Source of the DNA: Armatimonadota bacterium
GTDB lineage: Bacteria > Armatimonadota > Fimbriimonadia > Fimbriimonadales > GBS-DC
Length of the DNA: 64,000 bases
Assembly: GCA_037445735.1 (NCBI GenBank)
Contig: JBBIJY010000004.1
Coordinates: 32,001 to 96,000, forward strand
Direction of reading: 5' to 3'
A model generated the notes under the pieces. It had not been told where the DNA came from and searched no databases. It worked only from the letters and a program-made list of their open reading frames with translations. Position numbers and translations under genes: made by a program. This document shows positions 2,824 through 18,703 of this stretch, one piece after another (position 1 is the first letter of the stretch; the number at the start of each line of letters is the position of its first letter).

Positions 2824-3939
2824 ATGCACTGTGAAGAGATCATCGAGGCTTTACGACAACTGGAGCGGGAGCGCCATATCCCGTTTGAGGAGCTGATGGC
2901 GACCCTTGAAGGAGCGTTCGCCAACGCCTATCGGCGGCAGACGCACCTGCCTTCCAGCGCGCGCGTGCAGGCAAAGTTCAACCCCGCAGCCCCCCACTGC
3001 TTCTGCGTCATCGCAGAAAAAGAGGTGGTTGGTCTCGTAACCGACGAACACACCCAGATCAGCGTCGAAGATGCCCGCAAAATCAAACCCGACGCCGAAG
3101 TTGGCGAGATTATCCAGGTGGAGTTGCCCGTCGAAGAGTTCGGGCGTGTGGCGGTTCAGAACGCGTTTCAACTCCTTGTGCAGCGACTGCGTGAACTGGA
3201 ACGCGAGCATACGGTCAGAGATCTGCTCACCCGCAAAAAAGAGGTCATTCCCGCGCGGGTGGAACGATTTATCGGTCCGAAGGTTCTGCTCTCATACGGA
3301 CGCCTGGAGGTAATCCTGCCCGAAAAGCATCAAAGCCCGCGCGATGTGTATGAGATTGGCGATACCATCAAGGTGTATGTGCTGGAGGTGCGCACGCCGC
3401 CCGCCGAGCCAGGGCGCGAGCCGCGCCTGCGCGATGTGAAGGTCATCGCCTCGCGCACCGACCCGATGCTGGTGGCGCACCTGCTCAAACAGGAGGTGCC
3501 CGAAGTCGCCAGCGGCGATGTGGAGATCAAAGCGATTGCTCGCGAGGCGGGCGAACGCACCAAAATCGCCGTCACCTCCAAAAACCCACTGATTGACCCT
3601 GTGGGCGCGTGTCTCGGCTCGCGCGGCATGCGCATTCAGGCAATCAGCAACGAGCTGTTCAACGAACCCATCGATGTGGTCAAATGGAGTCGCGACCCGG
3701 AGCAGTTCATTCGCGAAGCGCTCAGTCCCGCCCGCGTGAACCGCGTGATTCTCAACGCTGACAAGCGCGAGGCGCTCGTTGTAGTGCCGAACCATCAGAT
3801 GCGTCAGGCGGTGGGGCGTGGTGGCGTGAATGTGCGCCTCGCTGAACAGCTCACCGGCTGGCGGCTCGATGTGCGCTCCGAAGGCGAGATAGCACGCGGC
3901 GAGGTCAACGGCGGTATCCCCTCCGCCCGACGCCCATGA
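2824..3939 (+). CDS. nusA: Transcription termination/antitermination factor NusA
   Basis: FGRVAVQ, S1 domain, IAREAGERTKIAV, DPVGACLGSRGMRI, AVGRGGVNVRLAEQLTGW; ATG start at 2824 chosen. Confidence 0.93.
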   Translation: MHCEEIIEALRQLERERHIPFEELMATLEGAFANAYRRQTHLPSSARVQAKFNPAAPHCFCVIAEKEVVGLVTDEHTQISVEDARKIKPDAEVGEIIQVELPVEEFGRVAVQNAFQLLVQRLRELEREHTVRDLLTRKKEVIPARVERFIGPKVLLSYGRLEVILPEKHQSPRDVYEIGDTIKVYVLEVRTPPAEPGREPRLRDVKVIASRTDPMLVAHLLKQEVPEVASGDVEIKAIAREAGERTKIAVTSKNPLIDPVGACLGSRGMRIQAISNELFNEPIDVVKWSRDPEQFIREALSPARVNRVILNADKREALVVVPNHQMRQAVGRGGVNVRLAEQLTGWRLDVRSEGEIARGEVNGGIPSARRP

Positions 3940-4196
3940 AGCGCGAACCCGTTCGGCGGTGCGCCAGCTGCCGGCGCACCGCCCCCAAAAAGGAACTCCT
4001 CCGTTTCGCCCGCCTGAAAGAGCGCGAGGGCTGGCGCATCGTGCTGGATCAGGCACAGAACCTGCCCGGACGCGGCGCGTACCTGTGCCCCCAGCGCGAA
4101 TGCATTCGTCAGGCGCTCAAAAAGCGCGCTCTGGACAAAGCCCTCCGCGCGCCCGTACCCCGCGAACTGCTGGAACAGCTGATGGCAGACCTCTAA
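3936..4196 (+). CDS. ylxR: YlxR/DUF448 RNA-binding protein
   Basis: PVRRCASC...KELLR...GRGAYLC...C; 4-nt overlap with nusA. Confidence 0.9.
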   Translation: MKREPVRRCASCRRTAPKKELLRFARLKEREGWRIVLDQAQNLPGRGAYLCPQRECIRQALKKRALDKALRAPVPRELLEQLMADL

Positions 4197-4264
4197 TGGT
4201 CAGATTCAAAGCAGGAATCCCGTCTCCGCTGGCGAATCGGTCATCTGCCACAGGAGGAATGGGC

Positions 4265-7200
4265 ATGGAAGCCAGGTTCGTTCATCTGCATCTGCACACG
4301 GAGTACAGCCTGCTGGACGGGGCGATTCGAATCCCCGAACTGGTCAAAACGGTCGCGCACTATGAGATGCCCGCCGTGGCAATCTCTGACCACGGCGTGA
4401 TGTACGGCGTGATCGACTTCTACAACGCCTGCACAGAGGCGGGCATTAAACCGATTATCGGCTGCGAACTCTATCTGGCGCCGCGCCGCATGCGCGACCG
4501 CACCCGCCAGGATCAGACCAGCTACCACCTGCTCATGCTGGCAAAAGATGAACGCGGTTATCGCAACCTGCTGCGACTCAGCACGATTGCCCATCTGGAA
4601 GGCTTCTACTACAAGCCGCGCGTGGACAAGGAGGTGCTGCGTCAGCATGCCGAAGGGCTGATTGCCACCTCCTCCTGCCTTGCAGGCGAGATACCCGACG
4701 CCCTGCTCAAGGGCAACTATGAACGCGCCCGCGCCCTCGTGCAGGAATATTGCGAGATTTTCGGACGCGAGAATTTCTATATCGAACTGCAGGATCACGG
4801 TCTGTCTGAACAGCGCACGGTGAACGAGGGACTGCTGAAGCTGGCGGAGGAGTTTCGCCTGCCCCTGCTGGTCACCAACGACGCGCACTATCTTAATCGC
4901 GAGGACGCCGAGATTCACGATGTGCTGCTGTGCGTGCAGACCAACTCGCGCATCGATGATCCGAAGCGGCTCCGATTTGGCACGCAGGAGTTCTATCTCA
5001 AGTCGCCGCAGGAGATGGCAGAGCTGTTTGCCCGCCATCCCGACGCGCTGGCGAACACGCTGGAGGTCGCCGAACGCTGCAATCTGGCTCTGGAGTTCGG
5101 TCGCGCTCAGCTGCCTGCGCCCGACCTGCCGGAAGGCAAGACGCCGATGGCGCACCTGCGCGACCTGTGCTACGATGCCCTGCCGCGCCTTGTGCCCAAC
5201 ACGCCTGACACCTATCTCCAGCGGCTGGAGTACGAGCTGTCGGTCATCGATAAGACGGGCTTCGCGCCCTACTTTTTGATTGTGCGCGACTTCGCCCAGT
5301 TCGCCCGTCAGCAGGGCATCTATTTTGGCGTGCGCGGCTCCGCCGCAGGCAGCCTCGTCTCCTACTGCCTCGGCATCACCGATATCGACCCCATCGAATA
5401 TGACCTCACCTTCGAACGCTTCCTGAACATCGAGCGCATCCAGATGCCCGATATCGACATGGACTTTGAGGACGCGCGACGCGATCTGGTGATCCGTTAT
5501 GTGCGCCAGAAGTACGGGGAGGAGCGCGTGGCGCAGATTATCACCTTCGGCACGCTGGCAGCGAAAGCCGCCCTGCGCGATGTGGGACGCGCCCTGAACA
5601 TCAACAGTGCCCTCATCGACCGCATCACCAGAGCCATCCCCAGTATGCCTGGCATGACCATCGAGCGCGCGCTGAGAGAATCGCCCGAGTTCCGCCAGGA
5701 GTACGAGCGCACGCCCGAAGTGCGGCGGCTGGTCGATCTGGCGCGGCGGCTGGAGGGCATCACGCGCAACGCCAGCGTGCATGCGGCGGGCGTGGTGATT
5801 GCCAGCGAGCCGCTGGTGGAGCGCGTGCCGCTCGCCCGCAGCGCCGACGGCGAACTCATCACTCAGTTCCATATGGGCAATCTGGAGCAGATTGGACTGC
5901 TCAAGATGGACTTTCTGGGACTGATGAACCTCTCCGTGCTGGCGAAAGCCGTGCAGAACATCGAACGCTCGCGCGGCGTTCGCATCAACCTGCGCGAGAT
6001 ACCGTTCAACGATGCGAAAACTTACGAGATGCTGGGGCGCGGCGAGACCACAGGCGTATTCCAGTTAGAGAGCGCGGGTATGCGCCGCTACATCCAGCAA
6101 CTGAAGCCCCAGAATGTGCGCGAACTCGCCGCGATGGTCGCCCTCTATCGCCCCGGACCGATGGAGCATATCCCTACCTACATCGCCCGCAAGCACGGAC
6201 GCGAACCCGTTACCTATCCGCATCCCCTGCTGGAGCCGATTCTCAAGGAGACCTACGGCGTGATTGTGTATCAGGATCAGGTGCTGAAGTGCGTGCAGGC
6301 GCTGGCGGGCTTCTCGCTGGGTAAGGCGGACATCCTGCGCCGTGCGATGGGCAAAAAGAAGCCCGAAGAGATGCGCCGCATGCGCTCCGAGTTCGTCAAA
6401 GGCGCCGCCGAAAGAGGCATCGACGAAGCGGAAGCCAACCGCCTGTTCGATCTGATCGAGCCGTTCGCTGGCTACGCCTTCAACAAGGCGCACGCCGTCT
6501 GCTACGCCCACATCGCCTATCAGACCGCCTACCTGAAGGCGAACTACCCCGTGGAGTATATGGCGGCGCTGATGGCGGTCTACAAGGAGAAGACCGATAA
6601 GATTGCCAGCTGCATCGAGGAGTGCCAGTCGCTGGGGATTGCGGTGCTGCCGCCGGATATTAACCGCAGTGAGGCGGTTTTCACGGTGGAGCCAGTCGAA
6701 TCGGCGCCTGGCTCCTCTCAAGCCTATGCGATTCGTTTCGGGCTGGGCGCGATCAAAAATGTGGGCGAGTCGGCATTAGAGGCGATTCTGCAGGCGCGGG
6801 CGGATGGAGGCGCGTTCGAAGATGTGTTCGACTTCGCTGTGCGGCTGCACGAGCGGGGCGGGCTGAACCGCGCCACTTTAGAAGCGCTCATTCAGGCGGG
6901 CGCTTTCGAATCGCTCCATCCCAATCGCGCTCAGCTGCTCGCCGGGCTGGACACGATTCTCAACTATGCGCAGTCGGTGGCGCGGGCGCGCGCGGCGGGG
7001 CAAAACTCGCTGTTTGAGGGCGGACAGGAGGTGCATATCCCGAAGCCCGCTCTGCCTGCCATCGACGATATGGGCACGCCCGAAAAGCTGGCGCTGGAGC
7101 GGGAGCTGTTAGGGGTCTATCTGTCGGCGCACCCGGTGCGCCCCTACGCCCGCGCGCTGGCGAAGGTCGCCACGCCCATCGCCCACGCCCGCGAGCGCGA

Positions 7201-13662: not shown

Positions 13663-13827
13663 CTTATGCGCTCCCTGTGGTTAATCCATACGCATTGTCA
13701 CCAGCGTTCTCCTGCCAGCCATCAAAGGGGGAAAGAATGTCGGGGCTTTCCCATCACGGGGTATCGCTTTCGAATCTGCTCACGCAGGCAAATGGCGATT
13801 GGTAGATAGCTTTGGGCGGTTCCGTCA

Positions 13828-14769: not shown

Positions 14770-16353
14770 TCACAGGTTGCCCTGCACGAACTCGGCGATT
14801 GCGTTTGGCGTGCTGGGGTCGAACCCCACCACATCGAGCATGCCGGCGTCGCTGGGGTCGGCGATAGTGAACGGGTTCGCCAGCATGCCGACCACCACCA
14901 GTCGGGCAGGGATACCTGTTGCCCCGCGATACATGCGCAGCGCTTCGACGGGATGCACTGCACCGTACCAGGTCTCCGAGTCGGTGTAGATGATGAAGGC
15001 GTCCGCCTCCACCCCGCGCTCGAGCGCCCAGAGCATCGGCAGGGCGCAGTCGGTTGCGCCAAACGGCAGGCTGGCAAGGTAACCCATCGCCTGCTCCAGC
15101 GGCATCTCAGGGGTCAGCTCCAGCGGAATCAGCTGGTGCGAGAAACCGACCACCTGGGCGCCCGTCTCCACATTCAGCGTGACGAGCGCGAGGGCTGCAC
15201 TGGCAGCACGCGGGGTCAGCCCAACGATGCCGCCCACATGACCCCAGCCCATCGAGCCAGAGATGTCAAGCGCCAGCACGAGCCGCTTGCCGGTGGGCAC
15301 CACATTTTCGAAGGTGGCGTAGAACGCCCTGTTGAGTGCCTTCACGATGGCGGGCACTGGCTGCCATGCACCACTGCCGCGTCCGCCGTAGCCGCGCTCA
15401 TAGGTCACCAGTGCAGTTAGTACCTGCAGCGGGTGAACCCGTGCCTGGCGCAGGCGCGCGCGGTCGTTGAGCTGCTTCACCACGAAGCGTGCGGCGTCGC
15501 TACCCTTTGTGAGCAGTCCCACGCGCGTCATCGTGGCGAGGTTGCGAATCATCGCCGTCATCGGCATCGCGGGCAGCAGCGCATCCCACACCGCCGCCGA
15601 GGTCAGCAGGTGGGTGGGCACAACCTCGCGCGGCAGCGCGTGATCACGAATCAGTCGCACCGCCTCCTGTAGCGGCAGATCGGGCTGATTCAGCCACTCG
15701 ACCGCCTCCAGGTACGCGCCGACCTCCGCAGGCAGCTCGGCTGCCACCTCGCGCGTGAGGATGTAGCGATAGAGCGCGTTGCGCCCGGCGGTGTCTGCCT
15801 TCGGGTGCGCCAGACGCAACAGGTCGCGGTGCGACCAGCCGTAGCGCTGGCGATACTTGGTGACCTGATAAGCCAGCTCGCGCAGCTCCCGTGTCTGATA
15901 CCAGCGTGCCACTGCGCGGCGCAACGCCCGCCCCCAGCCGCGCAGCTGCGTCAGGTAATCGATGAGGGTGAACAGATGGGTTCCTGTGCGCACGATGCGC
16001 GGCATCGCCTCAAGCGCGAGCGCGCGAACCTCGTCGCGCCCCGACGCTAGGGCGAGCGCCAGCACGAACAGCGCAGGATCGTTCTTGTAGGCGCGACCCT
16101 GCTCGCTGATCTCGGCAGTGCGCGCCAGCACATATGCCGGCTCGCGATAGAGCAGCTCCAGCACCGCCTTCGCGTTATCCAGCGTCAGGCGCTGCTCCGA
16201 CACATAGTAGGTTCCGCCCTCTGTGCCGAGAATAAGGAACCTGTCCAGCTGCTGGCGCGGCTCCAGCGGATAGGCAAAGCCACCCGCATAGTTGCGCACC
16301 TGCCCTGTCAGTGCCACGCGCTGCGTGCGCGAAAGAGACCCTGGGATTCGCAT
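14770..16353 (-). CDS. rsr: Ro60/Rsr TROVE-vWA RNA-binding protein
   Basis: NYAGGFAY, LDRFLILGTEGGTYY, RTGTHLF, KYRQRYGWSHRDLLRLAHPK, vWA MIDAS DISGSM, TDSETW, DVVGFD; SD GGGGGAG before ATG at 16353. Confidence 0.96.
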   Translation of the reverse strand: MRIPGSLSRTQRVALTGQVRNYAGGFAYPLEPRQQLDRFLILGTEGGTYYVSEQRLTLDNAKAVLELLYREPAYVLARTAEISEQGRAYKNDPALFVLALALASGRDEVRALALEAMPRIVRTGTHLFTLIDYLTQLRGWGRALRRAVARWYQTRELRELAYQVTKYRQRYGWSHRDLLRLAHPKADTAGRNALYRYILTREVAAELPAEVGAYLEAVEWLNQPDLPLQEAVRLIRDHALPREVVPTHLLTSAAVWDALLPAMPMTAMIRNLATMTRVGLLTKGSDAARFVVKQLNDRARLRQARVHPLQVLTALVTYERGYGGRGSGAWQPVPAIVKALNRAFYATFENVVPTGKRLVLALDISGSMGWGHVGGIVGLTPRAASAALALVTLNVETGAQVVGFSHQLIPLELTPEMPLEQAMGYLASLPFGATDCALPMLWALERGVEADAFIIYTDSETWYGAVHPVEALRMYRGATGIPARLVVVGMLANPFTIADPSDAGMLDVVGFDPSTPNAIAEFVQGNL

Positions 16354-16387
16354 AGTATCTACTCCCCCTGAGCTCTGGTTTTTAGAG

Positions 16388-16569
16388 CGGGAGGCGGGCG
16401 GGGGGAGGTCGAACCCCCCAACAGCCAGCAGGCTGGGCGACCGATAACCATCTCCGTCCGACCCGGCGGATAAAGAGGCGGCAGACGGGGGCAGCGCGTC
16501 CTCAACGCGATAACCATCTGCCTTCGACCCGCTGGATAAATAGGTGGAGACGGCAAACCCGCACTCCCG
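16388..16569 (-). ncRNA. Y RNA (YrlA-like) with two Ro-binding motifs and a T-arm
   Basis: Immediately 5' of rsr; two copies of GGGUCG(A/G)A..GG(C)AGAUGGUUAUCG; T-arm GGGGGG-UUCGACCU-CCCCCC at 16419-16400; the ends are complementary. Confidence 0.8.
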
Positions 16570-16663
16570 TTTCCCCTGCAACGGCAGAGGAACAGGCATT
16601 TTTAACGGCATCTTGCGCCAGAAAGTTCCCGCCATGCCCGCAGTGGGTATCCTTTACACCGTC

Positions 16664-18703
16664 ATGCCAGAGCCAGTGGAGTGTCATCCCTCGGTAGAAA
16701 GCGTGCTGGAGCAGCTGGAGCGGATTGCGCCGGGCGTGCCGCTGCTGGCGCTGGGTCAAACGGTGTTCTGGGACGAGCCGACCAAGAGCGGACTGCTGCT
16801 GTTGATGGCGGCGTGTGGACGCACGCGCCCCTTCTTCTTTGGCGTGCATGACACTGACTATTTCGGTCGCCTGCACACGAAGCGCCTGCCCAAAGAGAGT
16901 GTGCCCCCACCCGTCCCCGCTTCCCCAAAGCGGGAGGGTGCCGACTGGCTGCTGATGTTGCCGCATAATGATGGCTCCACGCGCGGGCTATGGTCGGCGG
17001 CGGGCGAAATCTCGTGCCTGTTCGGCAGCGAGACGGTTCCGACGCGCGCTCGCTATGCGGAGGCGGGCGCCCAGCTGGAGAAGGTCGCCCGTCGCCATCC
17101 GCTGGGGCGCGAGGCGTTTCTTGACGCGATCACCGAAGCGTGGGGCTGGCGCGGGCTGGTGGCAACCGACAGCGTGGCGCGCCCCGTGTATGAGATGTCT
17201 GTCCGCGAGGTGCTGCCCGCCCTCGACGCACTGCTCCAGTGGGGCTTCGAAAACACCCTCGAATGCCTAGCAGACCCCGACCAGCGCGATCGCGCCCGCC
17301 AGCGTGCTGACGCCATCCGTCAGCGCGTTCACGAGCTGGCGAGCCTCGCCGAATCGCTCTCGCTGGCAGACCTCTATCGCTACCTCTATCGCGATTTTCT
17401 CGTGTGGCTGATCGGCGAGGTGCCGGAGATGGTGGGCTTCACGCGCACGACGGAGCTGCTGCGCTTCGCACCTGACACCGCACACCTGCCGCGATTCCAG
17501 CTGCTGCAACGGTTTCTGGACCCGCGCACGCGCCCTATCTGTGAACGCGCCTACAACGATGCGGTTGCCGGCACCGATATCTATGCCCTGCGCGAGTTCG
17601 GCGAGGGCGCACTGCCGTTCGATCTGCTCATCCCCCGACGCGGGCGCGGCACGCTGATGCTCACCGAGCGATACCTCACCGTGCTGACGCCTGAACCCGC
17701 TGTGGTTCGGCTGGCGGAACCCGTGCAGAGCGTTGACGCGCTGGCGCGCGTGATCGCGGAGGCGTTCGGCGAGGGTGTCACGCTGATTGGCAAAGCGCTC
17801 ACTCTGGTGCCGATGCTGGCGCACGAGTTCATCTGTGTCTTCAACGAGCGTGGCTCGCCCTACTTGAGCCAGAGCGCTCGCATGCTGGATCAGATTCAGC
17901 GCGACGGCGTGGCGATAAACCTTCACCCGCTGTTGCGCCTGCGCTACGCGACATGGGACACGATGGGCGCGGAATGCATCCAGTTGCGTTTGCCAGAGCA
18001 TCTCGCGGCGGCGTTTGGCGAGCGCGAGCTGTGTTCGGAACGGTTCGCGCGGCGCTGGCGGGCGGTGGTGCAGGCGCAGCGCGAGCGGTTGCACGAGCTG
18101 CGCCGATGTCGCAGCCCACGCGAGCTGATGCGCTACCTGGCAGCGCATCTGAGCGAGGAGTGGCGCGACAAAGCCCGCGAGTATGAACAGCTGCACGCGC
18201 GATTACAGCAGGTCGGCGAGCAGGCGGCTTATCTGCGCCAGCAGGCGCACGCCCTGCACGCCGAACGCCGCGCCCTGCAGAGCGAACGCATCCGTCTGGA
18301 ACGCGAGAAAGGCGAGCTGTTCCGACAAGCCCGGCAGAACCCGTCGACGCGAGGCGCCTGCCTTGCCCAGCGCGAAGCGTGCGAGGCTCGCCTGCAAGCC
18401 CTCTCCGCACGATTGCGGGCGATCCGTCAGCAGCTCAGGGCGTTGCTGGCTCAACGGCTCCAGATCGGGCGCACGCCGGAGCTGACCGCCATCCGCGAGC
18501 GCGTGCAAACGCTGGAGTACGAAGCCGAACTGACGCGCGTGGAGCTGGTTCGAACTGCCATTCTGACCGCCGACGGGCTGGTTCACACCAGTGCCCGCCC
18601 CGCCGCATGGTGGTTCCTGCTGCTGTCGGAGCGATGGTTCCGCGCCAATATCCAGCAAACGGAACTCTATTTAGAGTGGCTTACTGGGGAGCGCAGTAAG
18701 TGA
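16664..18703 (+). CDS. Hypothetical protein with C-terminal coiled coil
   Basis: Long ORF with host-like codon usage; GGTATCCT 10 nt before ATG 16664; no family recognised. Confidence 0.75.
   Translation: MPEPVECHPSVESVLEQLERIAPGVPLLALGQTVFWDEPTKSGLLLLMAACGRTRPFFFGVHDTDYFGRLHTKRLPKESVPPPVPASPKREGADWLLMLPHNDGSTRGLWSAAGEISCLFGSETVPTRARYAEAGAQLEKVARRHPLGREAFLDAITEAWGWRGLVATDSVARPVYEMSVREVLPALDALLQWGFENTLECLADPDQRDRARQRADAIRQRVHELASLAESLSLADLYRYLYRDFLVWLIGEVPEMVGFTRTTELLRFAPDTAHLPRFQLLQRFLDPRTRPICERAYNDAVAGTDIYALREFGEGALPFDLLIPRRGRGTLMLTERYLTVLTPEPAVVRLAEPVQSVDALARVIAEAFGEGVTLIGKALTLVPMLAHEFICVFNERGSPYLSQSARMLDQIQRDGVAINLHPLLRLRYATWDTMGAECIQLRLPEHLAAAFGERELCSERFARRWRAVVQAQRERLHELRRCRSPRELMRYLAAHLSEEWRDKAREYEQLHARLQQVGEQAAYLRQQAHALHAERRALQSERIRLEREKGELFRQARQNPSTRGACLAQREACEARLQALSARLRAIRQQLRALLAQRLQIGRTPELTAIRERVQTLEYEAELTRVELVRTAILTADGLVHTSARPAAWWFLLLSERWFRANIQQTELYLEWLTGERSK

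Follow-up and report, generated by a model that had tools for sequence, protein, structure and literature searches.

Bacterial Y RNAs of the YrlA type are known from Salmonella Typhimurium, M. smegmatis and more than 250 species (PMC4201824; 10.1101/312249). In the main text of Chen 2014 (PMC4201824), YrlA carries a GNCGAAN0-1G motif near its 5' end, followed by YUAY, a V arm, a T arm, a closed acceptor-like stem-loop, a nearly invariant D arm and the 3' strand, and passages of Wang et al. 2018 (10.1101/312249) liken it to a circularly permuted tRNA with a closed acceptor stem. Chen 2014 (PMC4201824), again by its main text, gives 80–130 nt and one Ro60 site for characterised Y RNAs, and a simple hairpin Y RNA beside the tRNA-like one in each characterised species, both from a common precursor. 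For M. smegmatis it describes Y RNAs upstream of rsr that are processed from a precursor and bound by Rsr, the YrlA being cut by RNase P in the acceptor loop into two halves. Here, we describe a related RNA in a 64,000-nt stretch of DNA from an Armatimonadota bacterium (contig JBBIJY010000004.1, positions 32,001 to 96,000; hereafter the window). It occupies 16388–16569 of the minus strand and ends 34 nt ahead of the ATG of the Ro60-like gene rsr on the same strand, inside the distance of about 4 kb that characterises bacterial Y RNAs, and the same RNA was found upstream of rsr in all close relatives with complete upstream DNA (4 of 4). That the element is real and conserved is confirmed. On the structural model, we consider it rather probable that each of these five sequences forms a single Y RNA of about 180 nt, produced along with rsr, with a pair of modules for Ro(Rsr) binding and, in reduced form, a tRNA-like module. 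In the literature covered, we found this nested two-module layout described nowhere as a Y RNA architecture, the basic kind of Y RNA being already known.

Like YrlA as published, the window RNA adjoins rsr and is encoded on the strand of that gene. In the predicted cross-paired structure, both of its modules place a GNCGAA-type motif on the 5' side of a bulged helix; YUAY, a V hairpin and a tRNA-like T loop are shared as well, and the outer module keeps the YrlA order motif-UUAU-V-T. YrlA in the published accounts has its termini in the Ro stem, a closed acceptor stem-loop, a D arm, one module and about 110–150 nt, whereas the predicted termini of the window RNA lie in an acceptor-like stem and a second module closes its Ro stem. 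No closed acceptor stem-loop lies between T and D, and the predicted T arm runs directly into a covarying terminal stem. A D arm has no place either, with 2–4 nt between the terminal stem and the rod described below; D arms are readily seen in L008, L006 and L029 (L-numbers denote the 80 sampled rsr loci, of 109 confirmed, with 808,664 bases). With 181–186 nt and two modules, the RNA falls outside the length and one-site description of characterised Y RNAs.

Simple hairpin Y RNAs in their published form (YrlB of S. Typhimurium and M. smegmatis, Yrn2 of D. radiodurans) share an end helix, a CGAA loop, a helix and a small cap with the inner module of the window RNA, but the inner module lacks free ends, its end helix running on into the outer one. 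D. radiodurans Yrn1, by its published description, is alike in its natural tRNA order, with the T arm beside the 3' strand of the terminal stem, no full D arm and a short hairpin before T; it differs in that its single Ro site is within the terminal stem itself. The phiRo60-Yrl2 complex of Thermus phage phiLo, described from cryo-EM as a C2-symmetric two-ring assembly of two proteins and two RNAs (PMC12135203), is a precedent for paired Ro60 rings on a Y-like RNA. As described there, each RNA has one CGAA motif and the dimer forms via protein contacts, whereas the window RNA alone is predicted to carry both sites. We also considered phiLo Yrl1 as a two-motif precedent and rejected it, as the account in PMC12135203 gives two CGAA motifs in total, one per RNA. 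A full-text literature search returned no report of a Y RNA with two Ro sites, and a Ro60 dimer only in the phage paper (PMC12135203).

In all five folds the order of elements is the same: a terminal stem (6 bp, a one-nt bulge and 5–7 bp), a linker of 2–4 nt, a rod of about 108 nt, the UUAUCG linker, a short hairpin and the T arm. In the window, with all parts on the minus strand, the terminal acceptor-like stem joins its 5' strand (16557–16569) to its 3' strand (16388–16399) by 6 bp, a single-nt bulge (U16563) and 5–6 further bp, and both the fold and paired changes among homologues support it. The outer Ro module has a partner strand at 16534–16554, composed of GCCGUCUCC (16554–16546), the loop ACCUAUUU (16545–16538) and AUCC (16537–16534), which pairs with 16464–16448 of the motif strand at 16442–16464; the latter consists of GGGU (16464–16461), CGGAC (16460–16456), GGAGAUGG (16455–16448) and UUAUCG (16447–16442). 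Between these strands lies the inner Ro module (16466–16532). Its 5' half (16532–16489) contains GCGGGU, CGAA (16526–16523), GGCAGAUGG (16522–16514) and UUAUCG with the cap hairpin (16513–16489), and its 3' half, reaching down to 16466, contains CCGUCUGCC (16488–16480), then GCCUCUUU and AUCCGC. Judged from its letters and predicted pairing, the inner module is a complete simple-hairpin Y RNA design.

The rod thus composed runs from the outer helix (16553–16546 with 16455–16448) through an internal loop, a central duplex (AUCC-A-GCGGGU with AUCCGC-C-GGGU) and a second internal loop to the inner helix (16522–16514 with 16488–16480) and the cap hairpin. The cap hairpin begins with UUAUCG, and so does the linker after the rod. 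The short hairpin CAGCC/UGCU/GGCUG (16422–16435) stands in the V-arm position of YrlA and is predicted in all five sequences. The T arm follows (16400–16419), with a G-rich stem, a UUCGACC loop and no spacer before the 3' strand of the terminal stem.

The initial annotation of this locus, made from the letters alone, had proposed two similar units, A and B, that pair with each other better than with themselves. Its minus-strand sequence for 16388–16569 and all of its sub-coordinates match the DNA, that is, CCGUCUCC (16553–16546) facing GGAGAUGG (16455–16448) and GGCAGAUGG (16522–16514) facing CCGUCUGCC (16488–16480), the cap hairpin at 16509–16495, the CAGCC/GGCUG hairpin at 16435–16422, the T arm at 16419–16400 and the terminal stem of 16569–16557 with 16399–16388. 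RNAfold without guidance returns the rod with A and B cross-paired, the two hairpins and the terminal stem, at a minimum free energy (MFE) of -96.1 kcal/mol (z -4.57; none of 200 shuffles is equally stable). Against dinucleotide shuffles, the window RNA has a z-score of -4.12 and its four homologues range from -4.3 to -5.7, no shuffle out of 200 being equally stable for any of the five; adding the leader and the start of rsr to the sequence leaves the predicted fold intact. The preference of the units for each other also holds in numbers, with -12.4 kcal/mol (cross) against -8.6 (self) for the outer helix and -15.3 against -8.7 for the inner helix. Likewise, the predicted folds of the window RNA and its four homologues agree with the proposal of a terminal acceptor stem, no D arm and a mini Y RNA nested where the termini would usually be. 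One part of the proposal had to be given up, namely the pairing of ACCU and GCCU with the opposite GGGU. This register can be drawn in the window and is absent from the MFE structure; it pairs 75% of cells, compared with 100% for AYCC:GGGU, and the homologues have ACAG, GCUU, ACAA or ACAU at the ACCU site. The true partner of GGGU is AYCC, which is conserved in the alignment.

Rfam gave no match at the gathering threshold in the whole window, and the best weak match at the locus is tRNA-Sec (16393–16462, 15.2 bits, E 7.4, threshold 47). In a search of 13 loci, nothing reached the threshold except sbRNA in L009 and a tRNA in L008, and no YrlA family was matched, even at canonical YrlA loci. ARAGORN found no tRNA at the RNA locus in the window, L001, L002, L003 or L005.

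The Rsr proteins nearest to that of the window form a tight group (74–86% identity; Armatimonadota / Fimbriimonadales), the next being at most 59% identical. The homologous RNAs are found on the rsr strand at L001:4783–4965, L005:1637–1817, L002:950–1135 and L003:3998–4183, and in these loci and the window the RNA lies 24–116 nt from rsr. The largest distance is that of L003, where an unrelated insertion lies between the two. The RNA counts are drawn from the 80 loci; Rsr clusters P0003 and P0005–P0007 (74–82% identity; JGI or Logan only) stand outside them. A covariance model built from the five sequences scores its own members at 157–176 bits and nothing else above 29.2 bits in the 808,664 bases, so the full architecture is confined to this clade (the window and 4 of the 80 loci). 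BLASTN of the RNA against phages gave no match, and TBLASTN with Rsr gave 367 phage records, none of which reaches 60% identity.

Each of the five sequences folds alone into the same architecture, and RNAalifold predicts the cross-paired rod without guidance. Identity among them is 82–100% in both modules and 30–64% in the linkers, the cap and the variable loop halves, and UUAUCG does not vary (100% identity) in either module of any sequence. Since the two modules are equally conserved and the segments around them poorly so, the comparison argues that both are under selection. The T arm has a 5–6-bp stem and a 7-nt UUCRANN loop in every sequence.

Pair counts were taken on a model-fitted alignment (A4) of the five sequences. 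For the whole structure, 93.4% of 288 cells are paired, compared with 39–57% when the partners are slid, and ten pairs are changed on both sides, which is reached by none of 500 shuffles. Five of these ten sit in the terminal stem (5 of its 12 pairs), and the boundaries of the element can therefore be regarded as fixed; the short hairpin in the V position has both-side changes in 2 of 6 pairs, with 80% of its cells paired. Within the rod, compensatory evidence is sparse and comes down to one robust pair.

For the rod, the cross model pairs 98.0% of 148 cells and the self model 92.5% of 120 cells, the latter with no both-side changes, a purine-purine clash at 95:124 in all five sequences and pair 23:52 broken in three of them. 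All ten duplex comparisons favour the cross duplexes over the self duplexes (-6.4 to -10.4 kcal/mol) in stability, and in each of the five sequences the rod gains 11–19 kcal/mol over a fold into three hairpins of their own. The robust compensatory change is at pair 23:124, a cross pair that reads U-A, U-G or C-G across the sequences. In addition, the spacer between AYCC and GGGU is only 2–3 nt in each unit (2 nt in unit A of L002 and L003), because of which a unit cannot close on itself; self-closing single modules elsewhere have loops of at least 4 nt (4–5) on longer stems. At the centre of the rod, the GGGU:AYCC helices that end the two modules merge into a single duplex of 10–11 bp, with at most one mismatch and fully paired in all five sequences, and this makes the predicted rod pseudo-twofold. 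Beside these helices, the Y-R pairs 31:119 and 47:103 (A4; window 16539/16457 and 16524/16473), in which YUU faces CGRA, are U-A, U-G or C-G in 9 of 10 clade modules. We rejected this YUU-CGRA pair as solid covariation, as C comes with A in the majority of closed modules from other taxa.

Each module has a motif strand, composed of GNCGRA, a helix and UUAUCG, and an opposite YUU-AYCC partner strand. The inner module of the window has GUCGAAG, an exact match to GNCGAAN0-1G, and the outer module has the variant GUCGGACG, in which G replaces the first A. Exact GNCGAA occurs in the inner module of the window and L005, in the outer module of L001 and in neither module of L002 and L003. GNCGGA variants are common in many rsr-adjacent Y RNAs of other taxa, and for this reason the variant is not a sign of decay. 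GNCGRAN0-1G alone was dropped as a marker, with too many matches in GC-rich DNA, and a composite signature (GNCGRA, 6–16 nt, GYUAYC) was scanned across the 80 loci. It picks out Y RNAs ahead of rsr, of which a locus frequently has several, and its doubled form with two units is found in these five sequences only. On the rsr strand of the window it occurs at 16528 and 16462, plus a site at 13826 that is not near the RNA. A test for the side of the partner strand on 103 motif instances gave 56 downstream, 6 upstream and 41 ambiguous, and it is noisy in GC-rich sequence and cannot classify the outer module of the clade. The inner module (about positions 34–105 of model R1), taken with the central duplex, aligns both by sequence and by structure with free-standing hairpins at L033:4523–4588, L075:6826–6897, L007:2974–3051 and L011:4731–4802.

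The rsr gene itself is at 14770–16353 on the minus strand, with its ATG at 16353 and a product of 527 aa that contains Pfam TROVE (9e-44) and vWA_Ro60 (4.7e-62) domains. Among solved structures, the product is closest to D. radiodurans Rsr (2NVO, E 4e-125) and Xenopus Ro60 (1YVP, E 2e-116), and by these domain and structure matches and the homologue alignment it is a genuine Ro60 orthologue. An in-frame upstream ATG gives rise to a spurious 621-aa open reading frame (14770–16635, minus strand) that engulfs the whole RNA region and rsr; a comparable annotation trap is noted for M. smegmatis in the main text of Chen 2014 (PMC4201824). Rsr homologues have 527–529 aa with an alignment that begins at residue 1, and the homologous RNAs are 182, 183, 181, 186 and 186 nt long, with differences that are not multiples of three; the RNA stretch is therefore non-coding. 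On the plus strand a divergent gene (16634–18703, about 690 aa) starts probably at ATG 16634, which leaves an intergenic space of 280 bp that is almost filled by the RNA and a promoter-like element. This gene is 71% identical to its counterpart in L005, its counterpart is absent beside the RNA in L001, L002 and L003, and a search found no Pfam or NCBIfam family in it and weak coiled-coil-type similarity to SMC only.

The promoter-like element, GGAACTT-N16-CCGTT, lies at 16604–16629 on the minus strand (GGAAC at 16629–16625, CGTT at 16607–16604), about 35 nt upstream of the RNA. It stands at the same distance in L001:4724, L002:891 and L005:1580, and in L003 at about 3938 with CCGTA, and it also directly precedes the unrelated simple Y RNA of L009 (L009:2673); a loose form of the pattern has 31 matches in 1.6 Mb on both strands. 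It resembles the consensus of extracytoplasmic function (ECF) sigma promoters, and its repeated position suggests that a stress sigma factor controls the Y RNA and rsr as one unit in this phylum. A sigma-54 reading of the leader was rejected by eye, the spacing being wrong. No sigma-70 promoter and no terminator were found in 16200–16800, and the RNA is on this account likely to be cotranscribed with rsr and later processed. A leader hairpin, UUCCUCUGC / CGUU / GCAGGGGAA (16571–16592, minus strand), immediately precedes the terminal stem on its 5' side in the predicted fold with flanking sequence; read by eye, it is present in the homologues, with both strands altered in L005. Read from the folds, the T stem and the inner part of the terminal stem add up to 11–12 bp in all five sequences and are followed by the one-nt bulge. 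This equals the acceptor-plus-T length in tRNA, which is the distance measured by RNase P, and suggests an RNase P-type cleavage at the bulge.

From the above, the following course can be proposed. The RNA would be transcribed from the conserved, putative ECF-type promoter about 35 nt upstream and would be released from the rsr leader by tRNA-type processing. In the computed structure, the GC-rich terminal stem stacks on the canonical T arm, with the rod of about 108 nt leaving the junction, and the outer partner strand pairs with the motif strand 90 nt downstream. The inner simple-hairpin module closes the outer module where an ordinary Y RNA has its termini. Each module may bind one Rsr ring, so that either two rings are held or one ring has two alternative sites, and the tRNA-like end may stabilise the RNA or let a partner such as PNPase take hold of it. 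On this model, bivalent binding of two Rsr rings by one RNA is plausible. A fuller version is only tentative in our judgement, namely a bivalent scaffold in which two rings would be arranged pseudo-twofold, the tRNA-like end would recruit an exoribonuclease or another tRNA-binding partner to form a double-ring particle for RNA surveillance, and the RNA would have originated by enclosure of a simple Y RNA in an acceptor-opened RNA of the YrlA type. In this scaffold, a toggle between rod and two hairpins with occupancy would be possible, because the two helices are nearly identical.

Several points count against a single two-module Y RNA. There are only five sequences, all from one clade, and pair 23:124 is the sole robust compensatory change within the rod, for which alone 48 of 500 shuffles match the observed covariation. 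The two helices are near-identical in sequence, and the self arrangement loses just 1–2 pairs per helix. Pairs 31:119 and 47:103 fail to generalise beyond the clade. The outer motif of the window is a variant, and exact GNCGAA is missing from both modules of L002 as well as of L003. In a fifth close relative, L004, the contig ends 102 nt upstream of rsr, and the remnant has no model match at E ≤ 10 and no recognisable T loop; this locus was excluded from all counts. Furthermore, the two GGGU stand at opposite ends of a 10–11-bp duplex, within one helical turn, and for this reason two 60-kDa rings might touch or clash.

Two of these observations, the motif variants and the closeness of the sites, bear on the idea that one module only binds Rsr, the other being a structural spacer or a site for a different protein. 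At most one module per genome has exact GNCGAA and the sites are very close together, as this idea would have it; the equal conservation of both modules (82–100%) and the frequent GNCGGA in rsr-adjacent Y RNAs elsewhere speak against it, and we regard it as unlikely.

A cut of the precursor into two Y RNAs with one Rsr site each, an inner YrlB-like hairpin and an outer YrlA-like RNA in two pieces, is decidedly unlikely. It has parallels in the characterised bacteria, where a tRNA-like and a simple Y RNA come from one precursor and the M. smegmatis YrlA consists of two halves made by RNase P (Chen 2014, PMC4201824, main text), as well as in the homology of the inner module with free-standing hairpins and in the two separate tandem hairpins of L007. 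Against this stands the junction itself, which has no single-stranded spacer and is a continuous duplex of 10–11 bp, fully paired in all five sequences; a cut there would leave the outer module with an end helix of only 4 bp.

The RNA could also act in cis as the 5' leader of rsr, with Rsr binding one or both sites in its own mRNA leader and feeding back on translation or stability, and with no stable free RNA. The element does end 34 nt before the start codon with no terminator between, and a single promoter-like element precedes both. We nevertheless judge this very unlikely, for stable RNAs that have undergone processing typically show such a closed terminal stem on top of a canonical T arm, the M. 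smegmatis Y RNAs upstream of rsr are described as processed and Rsr-bound (Chen 2014, PMC4201824, main text), and the RNA of L003 sits 116 nt from rsr behind an unrelated insertion, which means that no constant distance from the ribosome site is kept. The least probable alternative, in favour of which stand the 92.5% of paired cells, the stability of the self duplexes and a local module geometry that is the same either way, is a multibranched RNA whose units pair with themselves into two closed modules side by side, or one that switches between the forms, since it would be worse by 11–19 kcal/mol, has the 95:124 clash in every sequence and no covariation, needs loops of 2–3 nt that are impossible in L002 and L003 unless the closing pair opens, and leaves the sole robust compensatory pair, 23:124, as a cross pair.

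If the single RNA with two conserved sites in one rigid rod is true, it would offer a direct test of whether Ro rings act in pairs; a dimeric Ro60 assembly has so far been reported, in the literature that we covered, for phage Ro60 only (PMC12135203). A two-site RNA in the window would also be a compact target for structural work on how bacterial Rsr recognises Y RNA. We know of no solved Rsr-Y RNA complex from bacteria.

The nested form may have arisen when a hairpin Y RNA was expanded or inserted at the closing loop of a single-module RNA; alternatively, it may be a truncated YrlA-YrlB-YrlA array. Upstream of rsr in L007, the closest outgroup with an Rsr identity of 59%, two independent hairpins stand in tandem (about 2971–3051 and 3057–3128), each with GGUUAUCG, and the nested form may have had such a pair as its precursor. 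L009, with an Rsr identity of 58%, carries a single simple Y RNA that includes a U-run. Against RF01656, the stem-bulge RNA family of nematodes, this RNA (L009:2708–2776) scores 42.8 bits and so passes the gathering threshold of 38 bits; the Rfam searches matched no bacterial Y RNA family.

Canonical permuted YrlA with a D arm is found in the Trueperaceae loci L008 and L006, and several Gemmatimonadota and Chloroflexota loci have RNAs of about 105–120 nt and natural tRNA topology, with a terminal acceptor-like stem and one Ro module closed by a short hairpin. Some of these single-module RNAs have no D arm (L044:4668–4778; L046:2428–2529, with a further one at about 2056–2169; L037:4395–4503), and others add a D arm and form a complete cloverleaf in which the Ro module takes the place of the anticodon arm (L029:873–985; L020, about 4200–4337; L027, about 4081–4210). 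They resemble the outer module of the window RNA in terminal stem, partner strand, closed end, motif strand, UUAUC, V and T, but are closed by a 4–7-bp hairpin with a 4–5-nt loop instead of a second module. The terminal acceptor-like stem is therefore not unique to the window RNA, whereas the second module is. For the single-module class with a terminal acceptor stem, we found no published description in the papers covered here (for Chen 2014 its main text). The tRNA-like part of bacterial Y RNAs thus has at least three topologies (the permuted YrlA, the unpermuted form with a closed Ro module and the nested form), and this variety is relevant to the proposal that Y RNAs originated from transcripts of tRNA.

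Large tRNA arrays adjoin rsr in L020:553–4119 (32 tRNAs), L030:3610–9486 (24 tRNAs) and L043:1634–6012 (16 tRNAs), and also in L017, L024, L027, L044 and L046. A tRNA-His(GUG) gene lies upstream of rsr and the Y RNAs in 7 of the 19 loci scanned, L030 included.

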